In this document: in pieces, positions 23 to 21,671 of the stretch
How positions within the stretch are numbered: position 1 is the stretch's first letter
Layout of the letters: each line of letters begins with the position of its first letter
Source: an uncultured Candidatus Bathyarchaeia archaeon
GTDB taxonomy: Archaea > Thermoproteota > Bathyarchaeia > 40CM-2-53-6 > CAVXDP01
Reading direction: 5' to 3'
Assembly: GCA_964354325.1 (NCBI GenBank)
Contig: CAYGZB010000006.1
Coordinates: forward strand, 1 to 24,757
Length of the DNA: 24,757 nucleotides
Position numbers and translations under genes: made by a program
The notes under the pieces: model-generated
Told to the model about the DNA's origin: nothing
The model's database searches: none
Seen by the model: the letters and a program-made list of their open reading frames with translations, nothing else

Positions 23-784
23 TCAAGATATGTATGTAAAACGTTCGTCCAGTTTTCTCTCGCTGAGCTGCTGGTCCAGCCTTTCGGACGCTTCTGCCAC
101 CCTCTCTTCCAGTTTTGACATCTTTTCTATCTCTTTTTCCAGATCGCAATAATCCAGTTTGAGGCCAAGTATCCGACTCAGTATCGTGAGAACACTCTTT
201 GCGGCTCTGGGGTCAGGAACATACCCAACGGTCTCTCCAAGCATACAGACCGCATCGAGACCTCGAGCTTCTGCCAATGGGAGTATTAGTCCTGCCACGC
301 CAACGACCGGAATACCCATCTCGTTTATGAGGACCCCAAGTTTTGACAGTCTCTCTGACAACTTGTTGCTTGTGGCTGCACCTACTACTTTCGGTCTTGC
401 CTTTTCGCTTGAACCATATCCACCAACTGTAATGATCAGTCTTGCCGAGTGTTTCGCTGCATACTCAACTATCTTTTCTGCCACCTCGTATTGTCCTATG
501 GCACTTTGGGGTTGGCAGTCCCCAGTAATGATGACGATATCTTTCTTGCCTTCTTTGCTTTTGTAGTGGTAGAATTCGTTTCTCGGCAATCTTGCCACTC
601 CATGCTTATCCACCAATGCATAGTATGGGAAGTGTGGTGAGTGGAGTGTGGCTATCCTTTTTGCATGTGATTGTTTTACGAGGCATAATGCTACAATCGT
701 TCCAATAGAGCCGAGACCTGGTAGCCCTTCTATGATTACTGGCTTATTCGGCTGAGTCTTCCCTTCGTTCACGCAGGTCTTCAT
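23..784 (-). CDS. PAC2-family proteasome assembly chaperone (TIGR00162-like)
   Basis: GLPGLGSIG, GDCQP and GYVPDPRAA motifs; conserved position after aIF2a-Nop10. Start set to the ATG at 784; the ORF track extends to 820. Confidence 0.9.
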   Translation of the reverse strand: MKTCVNEGKTQPNKPVIIEGLPGLGSIGTIVALCLVKQSHAKRIATLHSPHFPYYALVDKHGVARLPRNEFYHYKSKEGKKDIVIITGDCQPQSAIGQYEVAEKIVEYAAKHSARLIITVGGYGSSEKARPKVVGAATSNKLSERLSKLGVLINEMGIPVVGVAGLILPLAEARGLDAVCMLGETVGYVPDPRAAKSVLTILSRILGLKLDYCDLEKEIEKMSKLEERVAEASERLDQQLSERKLDERFTYIS

Positions 785-941
785 CCGTGCTTTCCCTCTC
801 ATAGACTTTGTACTTTGCATACTTGTCAGAGGGCGAAAACTTTGCAGGTTGTGGTGATCTTGTCTCGGTGCCGCACTTAGGACATTTCTCTTTAAGCGTG
901 TAGAGCATGCATGAGCTGCATTGTCTTATTAGCCATCTCAA
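744..941 (-). CDS. nop10: H/ACA RNP protein Nop10
   Basis: CxxC..YTLK..CPKCG..P.PAKFSP.DKY signature; TTG start overlaps the aIF2a TGA stop (TTGA). Confidence 0.92.
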   Translation of the reverse strand: MRWLIRQCSSCMLYTLKEKCPKCGTETRSPQPAKFSPSDKYAKYKVYERESTDEDLRERREDSAE

Positions 942-1720
942 GTGACTCGGCGTCCTTGTCCTCCAGCTTGGTCAATCGTCGACACAGCTTGGTCGATTGC
1001 TTCTTTGAGGACTTTCTCGGCCTCGGAATAGTCCTTTGCAGTGACCTCTATTTGATATTTTGGAGCTCCCACTGCGTAAACCTTGATCGTGCTACTTCGA
1101 GGTTTCTTCGCCTTCTTTGCGTTTAGAAGACCCTTCTTGATGTGCTCAATTCCATCTGGCTTGGAGCATGTAAGCTCCAAAACAGCCTTGCAGATGGCTT
1201 TCTCAGTCTTTATTTTCGTTCTGGCTACTTCGGTGATGACTTTCGCCCAGTTCAGATCAATTCCAATTTTTGCGAAGGTCTCTTCGCCTTCCTCGACTGC
1301 TTCCTGTAGCGCGTCGTAAAGTGATCCGTACTTGTCGAGAATCAGGTTGTTGAGGTTTTCGGCTGAACCTGCATCTAATGAAAGTTTTTCAATTGCGCTT
1401 TTCAGAATCGAATCTGCTTTCTTGTATTTCTTCCATTCGAGCAGTGTTTCCGCTTTTTCTCTTCCAGTGACTCTTCTCAGAGAGAGGTCGACTTGCCCTT
1501 TTTCTGTGTTTATTCTGAGAACCTTGAGAACTAGTTTCTGACCTTCTCTCACGTGGTTCCTTATGTTACGTACCCATGTCGTCGATATCTCTGAAATGTG
1601 GATTAGCCCTTCCTTGTTCTTGTACTCGTCGAGTTTTACATAGGCTCCGTAGTCTGTAACTTTGGTCACAGAAGCTACTACAAGGTCGCCCACGTCAGGA
1701 AATTCTGTTTGCGAAGAGAA
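938..1720 (-). CDS. eif2a: Translation initiation factor 2 subunit alpha (start uncertain: TTC 1720 or GTG 1693)
   Basis: S1 domain (YGAYVKLDEY..KEGLIHISEIS..WVRNIR, VDLSLRRV) and C-terminal GAPKY. The frame is open to the TAG at 1733-1735; the only canonical start is GTG 1693. Confidence 0.95.
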   Translation of the reverse strand, partial: FSSQTEFPDVGDLVVASVTKVTDYGAYVKLDEYKNKEGLIHISEISTTWVRNIRNHVREGQKLVLKVLRINTEKGQVDLSLRRVTGREKAETLLEWKKYKKADSILKSAIEKLSLDAGSAENLNNLILDKYGSLYDALQEAVEEGEETFAKIGIDLNWAKVITEVARTKIKTEKAICKAVLELTCSKPDGIEHIKKGLLNAKKAKKPRSSTIKVYAVGAPKYQIEVTAKDYSEAEKVLKEAIDQAVSTIDQAGGQGRRVT

Positions 1721-1732
1721 CTGTGGAGCCTC

Positions 1733-1927
1733 CTATCCAAGAATCTGAAGTGACTCTCCTTTGATCTCGGCTTTTCCTCCACGAGGAATAGCCAGAACCT
1801 CATCGCAGACGTTGCATCTCACTTCAAGAGAGACTCTGTCAAAAACTATTTGTTCATTCCCACACTTGCCGCACTTCACTTTCATGAATAGGCTTTCAGC
1901 CTTTGGTATCAATTCATCACGTTTCAT
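1733..1927 (-). CDS. rps27e: 30S ribosomal protein eS27 (S27e)
   Basis: F.KVKC.KC.NEQIVF...C.VC...LA.P.GGKA zinc ribbon. Confidence 0.96.
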   Translation of the reverse strand: MKRDELIPKAESLFMKVKCGKCGNEQIVFDRVSLEVRCNVCDEVLAIPRGGKAEIKGESLQILG

Positions 1928-1932
1928 TTGTT

Positions 1933-2211
1933 CTATGCTCCTACTTCCAGTTTTCGAAGTCTAATCCCTAATCTTGTAACTTCAAACCCGCACGTTTTAC
2001 ATTTCATTCTGAGGATCTGCTTCTTTGTGGTTTTCGCTGTTCTCTTTAGTTCAGGCCATTTCTGTCCACCATATCCATGCTTCTCCAGCTCATGTCTTCT
2101 GACACCACCTGCCAGTGAACGCTCTTTTCCTTTCTTGTAGACAGATGCGGAGTGCGGTGAATGCTTCTTGCATTTCGGACAGTATATTTTGGTCTGTTTT
2201 GGAAACTTCAT
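1933..2211 (-). CDS. rpl44e: 50S ribosomal protein eL42 (L44e)
   Basis: YCPKCKKH, GYGGQK, KTTKK..LR.KC..CG motifs. Confidence 0.96.
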   Translation of the reverse strand: MKFPKQTKIYCPKCKKHSPHSASVYKKGKERSLAGGVRRHELEKHGYGGQKWPELKRTAKTTKKQILRMKCKTCGFEVTRLGIRLRKLEVGA

Positions 2212-2374: not shown

Positions 2375-2938
2375 TTATTCGAAGTCGATCTTAAGAGCCG
2401 CTTTTCCTTTGACGAGTATTTCGGCATTCTCGAGGGGAAGCGACACTACATCTTCCGGTTTGAAAGGACCGTATGTCTTGATGTCTGCACCGACAATTGC
2501 CGGCATCTCAGTTAGGATTCTAACAACGATCCGTTTCGGTCTTCCTGTATTCGAACTTCTAAGCGATGCCTTTAGCTCACCAGTGAAGATGCCTTCAATC
2601 ATTGACTGATACAGCTTTGAAATTTCAGTGGCACTATCAAGAATCGCTTTTTCTTCCCCGACAGCCGCGTTTGAAATCGTGTCTGGACTGGTTTCGGACC
2701 CAGCTATCTGAAGTATCTTTCGTAGCCTCAACTGCAAGAGCTCTTTTGACAAGAGTCCTGCACGTTCCAGTTCTCCCTCTCCCAGTTTCACCTTCACGGT
2801 CTTCTCTTCAGTTTTTGCGAAACACTCCCTTAGTTGCCCAAGGTAGTTGGATAAGTCTTGGTAGAAGTTTCTGTCAATTGATTGTAGGGTTGGATTAGAC
2901 TTCTCTCGCTTCCAATACTCATAGATTCTGTCATACAT
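2375..2938 (-). CDS. DNA replication GINS family protein (GINS15/Gins51-like)
   Basis: Helical A domain (FYQDLSNYL..L, LR.RKI) followed by B domain (GADIKTYGPFKPEDVVSLP.ENA); ATG overlaps the PriS stop. Confidence 0.88.
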   Translation of the reverse strand: MYDRIYEYWKREKSNPTLQSIDRNFYQDLSNYLGQLRECFAKTEEKTVKVKLGEGELERAGLLSKELLQLRLRKILQIAGSETSPDTISNAAVGEEKAILDSATEISKLYQSMIEGIFTGELKASLRSSNTGRPKRIVVRILTEMPAIVGADIKTYGPFKPEDVVSLPLENAEILVKGKAALKIDFE

Positions 2939-4178
2939 TCGCTATCACCGGTCTTGCTTTTCCTTTACATATGAGTAAGACAGCCGCTTCCGCCGGCAAT
3001 GTTGCTCGCTGTTTTCTATATGGACCAAAGGTTGTTCCTCCAAGGTTGAATTGCGGAGCCTCGTCTACCTCGATCGTTGTCTCGCCGTCAGTGATTCCGA
3101 GAGCTTGATTGAAGGGATCAAAGGATTCGATATTGTCAACGCCAATCTCCACTGTGCGCATCCCAGTTCTTCCATTCAGGGTTTCCTTTGTTCGAATGAG
3201 TCGATGTACGTCCGTTGTAACAACCGTGTCGACTCTAGCCGAACAGTTTTCGATGGTTCTGTTTATGACTTTCTCCCAGCTCCTGCCAGCCATAGTACGA
3301 GATTCTAATCCATAGATCATGTTTCGCACGTCTTCGTATTGTAAGCTGGGGCCTCTCTCCTGAGTTACCATTTTGGCCACGGACCTCTTTACGCCCAGAC
3401 CAACAAGTTCTTCTGGAGTTCCTTTTCCGAAAACATCGATTAGCTTATGAATGATCCTTCTCTTCCATCCTCTGGTCTCTTCCAAACTCTCAGGAAGGCT
3501 TGGTCTAACAGAGTTTTCTTGCAGAACGTCGATTTCGTCGAGGTCAATTCCAATTCCAAGGACGTAATCAACGATTTCCTTTCTTTCATCGCTGCTCAGA
3601 CTCTGAATCGTGTCCGACATCACATGTACATGATAACCTCTGTGACCCGTAAAGAAGACTTTCAAATCTTTTCTTGAGAACCCATAATCCTCGATCAACA
3701 TGTCAGCAAGCTTCAAGGTTTCATTCTTTGCTTCCTTGATACAAAACCCGCAGATCCACGTACGATCGTCAAATCTGTCACCGTTGCATGAGGGGCAGAC
3801 TTGTGGGGCACCACCTTTTCCCGATCGACCGCATTTCTTGCAGGTCCACTGGTCATGCGTCTCTTTGCAAGGTGTAGGTATATGATCAGCATCGATATCG
3901 AATACCAGATCAGCGCCAAGCCAGCCTTTCTGTTCCATCTCTTCTTCCGGTTTAGAGTAGTAGGCGGTTGAATAGTAAACGTCTGAAGGAGCTGAATCCG
4001 TTATGAATTTTCTGAGGTCACTAACTGACGTGAACTGCCTATGTCTTACCATTACTCTATTCTTGAAGTAGATGAAGCCGAATTCTCGTTTTTCGAATTT
4101 CTCAGGAGGCATAATACGATGCGAGTTCTTTCTGTAGTATTCCCTGAATTTCTCTTCGAGAAACTGGTCAACGCTCAC
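2931..4178 (-). CDS. priS: DNA primase catalytic subunit PriS
   Basis: DLVFDIDADH, FTGHRGYHVH and DTVVTTDVHRLIR motifs. GTG 4178 follows a GGGGTGA SD; alternative start GTG 4187. Confidence 0.95.
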   Translation of the reverse strand: MSVDQFLEEKFREYYRKNSHRIMPPEKFEKREFGFIYFKNRVMVRHRQFTSVSDLRKFITDSAPSDVYYSTAYYSKPEEEMEQKGWLGADLVFDIDADHIPTPCKETHDQWTCKKCGRSGKGGAPQVCPSCNGDRFDDRTWICGFCIKEAKNETLKLADMLIEDYGFSRKDLKVFFTGHRGYHVHVMSDTIQSLSSDERKEIVDYVLGIGIDLDEIDVLQENSVRPSLPESLEETRGWKRRIIHKLIDVFGKGTPEELVGLGVKRSVAKMVTQERGPSLQYEDVRNMIYGLESRTMAGRSWEKVINRTIENCSARVDTVVTTDVHRLIRTKETLNGRTGMRTVEIGVDNIESFDPFNQALGITDGETTIEVDEAPQFNLGGTTFGPYRKQRATLPAEAAVLLICKGKARPVIANV

Positions 4179-12593: not shown

Positions 12594-13103
12594 TTAAGCT
12601 ATTTTGGGCTCCAACTTCTGAATGAAGACTCTTGAAGCCATTGACAATTTCGAAGATGAAACTCTCAAGGCTTCCTTTGCATGTCCAAGGGCTGATTCGT
12701 TTACATAGATTTCTATCACTGCTTTATTTGGCTTCAACCTCGCCGCCCTTCCGGTAGGCTTGCCAAAAGACCTGCGCATTCCTTCTTGCAGCCTGTCTGC
12801 TCCGGCCGTTGCAATCATTCGGTTCTCCCTAAGAATTATGTGTGGATAGGACACCAGCTTGACGAGATAGCCTGTCTCACCAAGTTTGTCAAACATGACC
12901 TTGTTCGCTGATACACGCGCCGCTTCGAGGGCATTGTGTCGAATCTGAATTGCACTCTCAGATAGGAGCGATACCTTATACTGGTAGGTTGCTTTGGAGT
13001 CGCCCATAGTGAACTTCTGGACCTTTGACGGGGGCGATCCGTGAATGTATTTATGCCGAGTGTAGGATTGTCCTTTCGCAACCCTGTAATTGCGGCCTTT
13101 CGT
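12594..13103 (-). CDS. rpl10e: 50S ribosomal protein uL16 (L10e), probable ACG start
   Basis: ALEAARVSANK, YPH.ILRENRM..AGADRLQEGMR.SFGKP motifs. The frame continues upstream of ATG 13007 through KGRNYR..GQSYTRHKYIHGSP to ACG 13103 (169 aa). Confidence 0.95.
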   Translation of the reverse strand, partial: TKGRNYRVAKGQSYTRHKYIHGSPPSKVQKFTMGDSKATYQYKVSLLSESAIQIRHNALEAARVSANKVMFDKLGETGYLVKLVSYPHIILRENRMIATAGADRLQEGMRRSFGKPTGRAARLKPNKAVIEIYVNESALGHAKEALRVSSSKLSMASRVFIQKLEPKIA

Positions 13104-13144
13104 GACTGGTCACCTGAATCGTCAGCATAGAGCCTTTGACTCGT

Positions 13145-20498: not shown

Positions 20499-20582
20499 GT
20501 AATTGTTCCAGCCAATCGTCTGTAGTTATTCTGACAAAACTGCAAGTGATGCAATATCCTAGACGACTATTCGTCTCATAAT

Positions 20583-21671
20583 ATACGGATTTCAATTGGG
20601 GCTGGAAGAACCCTACTGCTTTCTGGGCCAGCTTCGATCAAGCTAATTGATGGAGAGGCAAGCATCTTCGCTTCTCCGCTAGAAAGGGGATACAAGATTG
20701 TTGTCGGCAAAGGAAAACAACTTCCGATAGAAACATCGAAAAACTCCACCATCCACTGTTCCCTTTCCAGTTCTGCTGAATCTCTGGAGATCGCTGGAAG
20801 CACGATCCCTGAGTCTTGGATGGAAACAGCGCAGACTATCGTCGAATGTGGACAAGGAAGGACCGTCGTCATTGGCAACGTGGACACTGGCAAAACCGGT
20901 TTCTGCACCGTGCTAGCTAACATCGCCTTGAATTCGGGAGTCAAGGTTGGAATTCTTGATGCTGACCTTGGTCAGTCTGACATTGGACCACCTGGCAGCA
21001 TTGGATTCGGGCGAGCAGGCAACCACATCTTTGGCCTATCAGATGTCACTCAGGATCGTCTGTATTTTGTAGGATACATTAGTCCAGCGCTAGTAGTCAA
21101 CAAAGCACTGTCTGGAATGAGGAAACTGCTGGAACGGACAAAGAGTGTTGATATTCTCATAATCAACACAGATGGGTGGGTTCTGGGTGACCAGGCAATT
21201 GTCTACAAGAAGAGCCTGATCGACCTAATCGAACCGAATTTTGTTGTGGGAATAGGGGAAAAAAGCGAAACAAACTCTATCCTTGAACTTGTCGAGCAAA
21301 CATCATTTCAAATACAGTCCCCGAAGATGGTTCTCAGACGCACAAGAGAGCAGAGGAAAGAACTGAGGGAATTGAGGTACAGGAAATACCTGAACAGATC
21401 GGTCGTGGTGAAGGTTGATACTCTCAGATCTAAGGTTTCATTTAGCAATGGTCAGGTGTTGAGACCTGAGCATCTTGATTTATCGTTGACAAGGTCTCTT
21501 CTGGGCATGCTTGATGATGATGGATGGCTGTTGGGAATAGGGGTTCTTTCAGGCATGAACCGGAAAGACGAGAGCCTTAGGATTACAACACCTGTAACAT
21601 CCTTTTCTGAAATCGAAATTGGAGCCGTAAAACTGGATGAAAATGGGACCGAGTTATCATATTTGGAATAG
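20583..21671 (+). CDS. Clp1/Nol9-family polynucleotide 5'-hydroxyl kinase, probable ATA start
   Basis: P-loop GNVDTGKT, DADLGQSDIGPPG and INTDGW motifs. The frame is open from 20550 and encodes GRTLLLSGPAS...GSTIPESW before ATG 20820. Confidence 0.9.
   Translation: MRISIGAGRTLLLSGPASIKLIDGEASIFASPLERGYKIVVGKGKQLPIETSKNSTIHCSLSSSAESLEIAGSTIPESWMETAQTIVECGQGRTVVIGNVDTGKTGFCTVLANIALNSGVKVGILDADLGQSDIGPPGSIGFGRAGNHIFGLSDVTQDRLYFVGYISPALVVNKALSGMRKLLERTKSVDILIINTDGWVLGDQAIVYKKSLIDLIEPNFVVGIGEKSETNSILELVEQTSFQIQSPKMVLRRTREQRKELRELRYRKYLNRSVVVKVDTLRSKVSFSNGQVLRPEHLDLSLTRSLLGMLDDDGWLLGIGVLSGMNRKDESLRITTPVTSFSEIEIGAVKLDENGTELSYLE

Follow-up and report, generated by a model that had tools for sequence, protein, structure and literature searches.

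The gene for the alpha subunit of archaeal initiation factor 2 (aIF2-alpha) in an uncultured member of the Bathyarchaeia has the codon TTC at the position where a strong Shine–Dalgarno (SD) sequence and comparison with related species place its start. The gene lies on the minus strand of a 24,757-nucleotide stretch of DNA (contig CAYGZB010000006.1 of assembly GCA_964354325.1, positions 1 to 24,757), referred to below as the window, which comes from a metagenome-assembled genome (MAG) of freshwater, wetland or soil habitat that is 87% complete. The TTC codon is fixed throughout one species, relatives in the same genus have ATC in its place, and the gene has stayed under constraint. Of the ways in which such a gene might be translated, we favour continued weak initiation at the UUC codon itself, to which we give a probability of roughly 0.45.

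Read on the minus strand, the start region runs CTT GGA TAG (1735-1733) GAG GCT CCA CAG TTC (1720-1718) TCT TCG CAA ACA GAA TTT CCT GAC GTG (1693-1691) GGC GAC CTT GTA, and the codons from TTC 1720-1718 onwards translate in frame to SSQTEFPDVGDLV. The letters from TAG to GGC, the AGGAGG at 1734-1729 over the stop codon of the preceding eS27 gene and the 8-nt spacer from there to TTC are exactly as quoted in an earlier note made from this sequence alone. That note had further observed that no ATG, GTG or TTG occurs before GTG 1693, that this GTG lacks an SD of its own, and that the eS27 amber stop is in frame with aIF2-alpha. All three observations are borne out by a reading of the sequence: none of the three codons is found in any frame from 1732 to 1694, predicted pairing with the 3' tail of 16S rRNA amounts to -9.9 kcal/mol upstream of TTC vs -0.1 kcal/mol upstream of GTG 1693, and the eS27 TAG stands in phase with the aIF2-alpha frame, 12 nt before the start position. 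The pairing energies were calculated with the anti-SD tail GGATCACCTCC, taken from a genome of the same genus and from relatives.

The identity of the gene is well founded, with both expected Pfam domains present (S1, 9.6e-14; PF07541, 3.6e-29) and a full-length match to the Pyrococcus aIF2-alpha structures 3aev and 1yz6 (E 1e-57). The aromatic-Pro-(D/E)-x-G-(D/E) motif of the protein is found in frame as EFPDVGD at 1705-1685, just before strand beta-1, and its Pro and Gly are invariant in an alignment of 26 sequences, the Pro being present also in the solved Pyrococcus and Sulfolobus proteins. EFPDVGD falls inside the product only if translation starts upstream of GTG 1693. Since EFPDVGDLVVA can be aligned with EYPEEGEFVVA, which lies close to the N-terminus of solved Pyrococcus aIF2-alpha (1yz6), the conserved protein begins upstream of that GTG.

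Evidence for where it begins comes from four sister species in the same genus, at 74-82% protein identity, all of which have ATC TCT exactly at the position of TTC TCT in the window. In these species the ATC follows TAGGAGG, AAGGAGG or TAGGGGG, again 8 nt away; the frame is closed by a stop 4-5 codons upstream of it, without a canonical start, and the next canonical codon is found only within or beyond beta-1, the first strand of the S1 domain. Public gene calls give the sister-species proteins as 243 or 233 amino acids, starting at internal GTG codons and cutting into the S1 domain, an annotation artefact that arises because the ATC start goes unrecognised. At the position of GTG 1693 the four sister species read GTG, GTA, GTC and GTA. 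As three of the four have GTA or GTC, this is an ordinary Val codon in the genus, and the shortened GTG start that the earlier note had put forward, although possible in the window's own species, is not the rule of the genus.

A survey of 97 distinct aIF2-alpha loci from Bathyarchaeia (numbered within L001-L110) gives the same picture on a wider scale. The homologous codon is ATG at 51 loci, TTG at 18 and GTG at 6, and is usually followed by Ser. Sixteen loci have no canonical start anywhere from the upstream stop to the aromatic-Pro motif; at fifteen of these (the four sister species and 11 others) the homologous position is occupied by ATC, ATT, ATA or CTG, and the window alone among the sixteen offers no codon within one mismatch of AUG. 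When placed on a tree built from the remainder of the aIF2-alpha protein, with the start region excluded, the near-cognate state fills three clades: the window's genus (5/5), a 12-member clade in which all members have ATC, ATT or ATA, and a clade with CTG (3/3). At least 4-5 changes of state are required across the 97 loci. In these three clades the weak codon has been kept over long divergence and is not a transient lesion. Near-cognate starts are also accompanied by stronger predicted SD pairing than canonical ones (means of -10.2 vs -5.8 kcal/mol; Mann-Whitney 4e-7, a p-value that is uncorrected for phylogeny and overstates independence given the few clades involved).

Taken together, the homology of the codon, the lack of an alternative start in the sister species and the strength of the SD indicate that 1720-1718 is the real, homologous start position of aIF2-alpha and that near-cognate AUC is the ancestral, long-standing state of the genus. 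The window's TTC, which lies two mismatches from AUG where the sister-species codon lies one, is on the same comparison a derived, species-wide A-to-T change at the first position that removed even near-cognate status. The earlier proposal of a non-canonical start at the SD-defined position thus stands in so far as this position is homologous to the starts of relatives and the non-canonical state ancestral, but the ancestral codon was evidently ATC, with TTC a private substitution. The contrary view, that relatives would all turn out to have TTG or ATG and TTC to be a private change, is right on the second count only: TTC is private to the species and fixed in it, but its genus has ATC.

Two side observations were made in the course of the survey. 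Across the 97 loci, SD strength runs inverse to start-codon strength, TTG, GTG and near-cognate starts having a strong SD and ATG starts often having almost none, as in TAAATG or TAGCACAACATG. At two loci (L024 and L082) the start region, ~60 nt upstream of the aIF2-alpha Val codon, is duplicated in tandem and in frame. The duplicated unit, AGT ATC TCC ACA CAA GAA TAT CCT GAA xxC GGT GAT, yields two copies of ISTQEYPE(S/F)GD, and either ATC could act as start.

Could the TTC be a sequencing or assembly error, or a rare allele, with ATC or TTG as the true codon? A change of one base would restore a usable start codon, and the consensus sequences of MAGs sometimes contain errors. Logan contigs from three independent runs (two of DNA, from freshwater in 2017 and from wetland in 2025, and one of an RNA library) nevertheless span 1716-1747 with zero differences to the window, while differing from it at 1664, 1844, 1919 and other sites. 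The protein cluster at 90% identity around the gene has 39 members, and a strain set of 21 contigs, drawn from separate JGI, ENA and Logan samples, comprises 19 haplotypes that are 96-99% identical in nucleotide sequence. Every one of the 21 contigs has the identical 45 bases from TAG through TTC to GTG, although they vary mutually at 68 other sites, and the TTC state spans a single species cluster of ~4% nucleotide divergence. In the RNA-library contig the letters of the start region are the same as in DNA, with no RNA editing seen. TTC is thus real, fixed species-wide and private to one species; the alternative reading TTG that the earlier note had allowed for at 1718-1720 is contradicted by the contigs of the three runs, and an error or rare allele, whose chances we put close to nil, is excluded at the consensus level.

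The same strains bear on whether the gene is still in use. Loss of the start codon could be the first step in pseudogenisation of a decaying or dispensable gene, and a conserved site without a recognised start codon is what such decay might leave. Only one copy of aIF2-alpha was found in the 87%-complete genome, a point that we list on the same side. However, the frame is intact in all 19 haplotypes, the proteins of the strains are 95-99% identical, the ratio of non-synonymous to synonymous polymorphism (pN/pS), taken between the window and strains of its species, is 0.17-0.30, or about 0.2, as under purifying selection, and the window's branch does not exceed those of the sister species in length. 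The aIF2-alpha gene is clearly functional in the TTC species, and we consider decay very improbable.

Selection can also be followed in the first codons. The 21 contigs have 68 segregating sites in 990 nt, of which none falls in the 39 nt that separate TAG from GTG. At a neutral density of 0.183 per site, as seen at four-fold degenerate positions, the 27 nt from TTC to GAC should have 4.9 segregating sites (probability of none 0.007) and the 39 nt between TAG and GTG should have 7.1 (0.0008); coding-like constraint on the nine codons from TTC to GAC would leave 2.0 expected (0.14). The test was limited to these two pre-defined intervals of 27 and 39 nt, and the polymorphism-free gap around the start taken as a whole, ~70-100 nt, is not unusual given the density of sites. 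Within the nine codons, the changes that the window's lineage has undergone are either silent or conservative (Ser to Thr, Tyr to Phe), and it has retained the invariant Pro. Because TTC is found in every strain, this constraint acted after TTC arose. It favours, as far as polymorphism can speak to translation, a start at or before the nine codons and their ongoing translation over a pure shift to GUG 1693.

A shift of this kind deserves to be taken seriously all the same. With the AUC start gone, ribosomes finishing eS27 or let go by the SD would drift ~40 nt downstream to GUG 1693 and make a 251-amino acid product beginning MGDLVV, minus nine N-terminal residues. Between the TAG and the S1 core no codon other than this GTG comes within one mismatch of AUG, it is kept in 21 of 21 strain contigs, and a start there would leave the beta-1 strand GDLVVASV intact. 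The part that the alpha subunit plays in tRNA binding, moreover, is usually ascribed chiefly to domain 3. Set against this are the near absence of SD pairing upstream of the codon (-0.1 kcal/mol), its replacement by GTA or GTC in all but one of the four sister species, as expected of a plain Val codon, the loss from the product of a motif whose Pro is invariant in 26 sequences, and the 27 upstream nucleotides, which show no polymorphism where about five sites would be expected of a free leader. We regard a wholesale move to GUG 1693 as a possible but doubtful explanation.

Another route to the factor would be readthrough of the eS27 TAG, giving a low-level eS27-aIF2-alpha fusion with a 13-codon linker that supplied the factor once AUC had been lost; the junction peptide would read ...SLQILG-X-EAPQFSSQTEFPD.... 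In favour of this route, the window and all four sister species have the TAG in frame, a presumably high level of eS27 translation could let even rare readthrough give some protein, and constraint on the 39 nt fits readthrough as well. The in-frame layout, however, follows from the TAG-GAGG-N8 geometry itself. In the survey the eS27 stop is in phase at 15 of 21 near-cognate loci vs 23 of 75 canonical ones (the chance level), the excess coming from two clades that share TAG-GAGG-N8, and it is out of phase at the other 6 of the 21. Moreover, TAG is the commonest stop of long open reading frames (ORFs) in the genome (233/496) and ends the L44e gene too. From one sister species to the next the four linker codons ahead of ATC are replaced non-conservatively (EAPQ, EAPE, GVQQ, KEALR), while differences in the codons that follow ATC are mostly synonymous. 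Nor do we know of any precedent for the fusion of a ribosomal protein to an initiation factor. The best match to PylS in the 87%-complete genome reaches 23 bits against a family cut-off of 178, with only weak matches to other class II synthetases, and pyrrolysine decoding of the TAG is excluded. The readthrough fusion suggested in the earlier note is therefore unlikely: it is not the rule of the genus and, in the TTC species, would be a minor and rather improbable source of the protein.

We therefore return to initiation at UUC 1720-1718. As the comparison shows, the strong GGAGG that overlaps the eS27 stop positions the historical start codon, which in the genus and in a neighbouring clade is AUC where most relatives have AUG or UUG. 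On the account favoured here AUC would be read by initiator Met-tRNA with a third-position mismatch, and UUC in the window's species would pair with the CAU anticodon through the middle base alone, two mismatches that appear to be tolerated singly (the first position as in UUG, the third as in AUC) being combined in one codon. The SD may keep docking the 30S pre-initiation complex over UUC, possibly aided by ribosomes that have just terminated on eS27, 15 nt upstream, and initiation at low efficiency would then give (M)SSQTEFPDVGDLV..., with an N-terminal peptide reading (M)SSQTEFPDVGDLVVASVTK. That the SD-anchored complex of this lineage accepts UUC with middle-base pairing only is a tentative proposition, to which we would give somewhat less than even odds. 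Some ribosomes may start at GUG 1693 instead, and the two starts could coexist.

Several points weigh against initiation at UUC. To our knowledge, no natural gene has been shown to start at a two-mismatch codon of this kind. In E. coli, codons that are not near-cognate give 0.01-1% of the AUG level, with AUC at ~1-2% (bioRxiv 10.1101/063800). A canonical GUG stands nine codons downstream, in frame. The polymorphism argument uses a Poisson model and metagenome consensus contigs, and it shows constraint on the 39 nt, not their translation. Searches of the MAG with ARAGORN, with and without introns, and with anticodon-arm patterns found few tRNAs and did not recover the initiator tRNA, nor was the 3' end of 16S rRNA found in the MAG. 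The two mismatches between UUC and the anticodon, together with the low rates in E. coli, hold our estimate for UUC to the figure given at the outset. As the present-day mechanism, UUC would thus come first, GUG 1693 second as the less probable choice, and readthrough a distant third.

If weak starts were a device of aIF2-alpha alone, they should be absent from its neighbours, and this is not quite so. In the same loci no canonical start is found for L44e at 4 of ~90, for S27e at 1 and for Nop10 at 0, vs 16 of 97 for aIF2-alpha. The L44e start columns concerned have CTG (L022), ACG (L056 and L087) and ATA (L096), and that of S27e has ATC (L026), in each case without a canonical alternative. 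The window was also compared by synteny with the four sister genomes (G001-G004) over ~29 genes, with some start columns checked by eye. Three further cases came to light. The start column of the gene for uL16 (L10e; window 12597-13109, minus strand), near 13100, has ACG in the window and in G001, G003 and G004, the stretch being unreadable in G002; no canonical start lies upstream, and the next ATG is ~34 codons into the protein. A 187-amino acid ORF (window 2378-2941, minus strand) begins MYDRIYEYW with ATG in four genomes and has ACG in G002 with no other start nearby (L131/L132). Finally, a Clp1-like ORF (window 20550-21668, plus strand) has lost its ATG in the window's species, and in the window its conserved GAGRTLL block is preceded by neither ATG, GTG nor TTG; an ATG is found upstream in G002, G003 and G004, the three sister genomes with a match, and the window offers only the Ile codons ATA, ATT and ATC.

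On these comparisons, Bathyarchaeia tolerate near-cognate starts in a minority of genes, among which aIF2-alpha is enriched and keeps them long. This permissiveness of the lineage counts in favour of initiation at UUC. Since other genes of the lineage have such starts too, the idea of the earlier note that a poor start of aIF2-alpha acts as feedback on the delivery of initiator tRNA is weakened: the weak start need not be a device specific to this gene.

Other ideas were tried and dropped. An RNA structure that brings the SD near GTG finds no favour in the predicted fold of 1670-1765, which at -22 kcal/mol has a z-score of +0.46 relative to shuffled sequences. Absence of aIF1 (SUI1) as a cause of relaxed stringency can be discarded, the gene being present in the window's genome and in 33 of 41 genomes searched. 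Translation of a leaderless transcript from GTG or TTC was likewise set aside, as inspection by eye reveals no AT-rich, TATA-like box ~27 nt upstream of either. A genome-wide scan for GGAGG followed by each codon in turn was swamped by GGAGG within coding frames and gave no usable estimate of start usage.

The genes around the start region are arranged in the order L44e-S27e-aIF2a-Nop10-PAC2 family (by Pfam), and the coordinates of the features discussed are collected in Table 1. On the minus strand at 2257-2264, ~49 nt upstream of the L44e ATG, the sequence TATAAATA is a plausible archaeal TATA box; it would serve the L44e-S27e-aIF2a-Nop10 operon and give it a short leader. In many public contigs (compare loci L113-L125) Nop10 is called as a protein of 54 amino acids from a downstream ATG.

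Table 1. Features of the aIF2-alpha locus in the window, with positions counted from its first letter
Feature	Positions	Strand	Remarks
L44e gene, first in operon	1933..2211	-	ATG start; ends in TAG
eS27 (S27e) gene	1733..1927	-	64 codons; TAG stop 1735-1733; from ORF list; Pfam PF01667 2.8e-18
Shine–Dalgarno AGGAGG	1729..1734	-	Overlaps eS27 stop (TAGGAGG); predicted duplex with 16S tail -9.9 kcal/mol; motif also in sister species
8-nt spacer CTCCACAG, SD to start position	1721..1728	-	Equal spacing in sister loci L002-L005; changes among sister species unlike protein-coding constraint
TTC, conserved start position	1718..1720	-	ATC in four sister species; ATG/TTG/GTG or ATC/ATT/ATA/CTG in other Bathyarchaeia
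Eight codons SSQTEFPD, with conserved aromatic-Pro motif of aIF2-alpha N-terminus	1694..1717	-	Match residues 5-9 of solved Pyrococcus aIF2-alpha chains
GTG (Val codon), sole canonical start candidate	1691..1693	-	Without SD; 251-amino acid ORF; GTG not conserved in genus
aIF2-alpha coding region from conserved start position	938..1720	-	TGA stop 940-938; Pfam S1 and PF07541
Nop10 gene	744..941	-	TTG start overlaps aIF2-alpha stop (TTGA); Pfam PF04135 match from residue 1

If UUC is accepted as a start, an initiation factor of the essential type would have been made in this way throughout the history of the species, and Bathyarchaeia would have markedly relaxed proofreading of the start codon. 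The UUC species, in which the gene and its first nine codons have stayed under constraint, is a natural experiment on the minimum of codon-anticodon pairing that an SD-anchored archaeal initiation complex needs. There is a practical side to this as well: gene finders shorten aIF2-alpha to 251, 243 or 233 amino acids against ~260, so that database entries are left without either the conserved motif or a portion of the S1 fold.

Archaeal start codons are generally taken to be AUG, GUG and UUG only, a limit enforced by aIF1 and aIF2. Our search of the literature found no account of near-cognate starts in Bathyarchaeia, nor any paper dealing with the aIF2-alpha start codon, and what appears to be new here is a UUC state fixed in a whole species with continued constraint on the gene. 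Three known systems invite comparison. In termination-reinitiation coupling, a likeness lies in the spacing, with a stop 12 nt before the start position and overlapping its SD, and with Nop10 in turn overlapping the aIF2-alpha stop. The described cases known to us use AUG, GUG or UUG, whereas the codon here is UUC, and it is the geometry that seems to fit. Eukaryotic eIF1 and eIF5 are autoregulated through poor start context or upstream open reading frames; as there, a factor that sets the stringency of initiation would be expressed from a suboptimal start site, but the eukaryotic cases depend on AUG context and scanning, and the archaeal site is SD-positioned and non-AUG.

The closest parallel is bacterial infC, encoding IF3, which has a conserved AUU start and is subject to translational autocontrol, IF3 itself discriminating against AUU. 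In both cases the gene for an initiation factor has kept a weak near-cognate start for a long time, here AUC, AUU or AUA in whole clades of Bathyarchaeia behind a strong SD. The differences are equally plain. Archaeal discrimination against non-canonical starts is attributed to aIF1 and not to aIF2-alpha (PMC6237735). Where IF3 closes its own feedback loop, the discriminating role would here belong to aIF1, and a loop through aIF2-alpha is hypothetical. The window's UUC, further, is not even near-cognate, and weak starts in this lineage are not limited to one gene. With these differences in mind, a weak AUC start kept in whole clades of aIF2-alpha would be the archaeal counterpart of infC.

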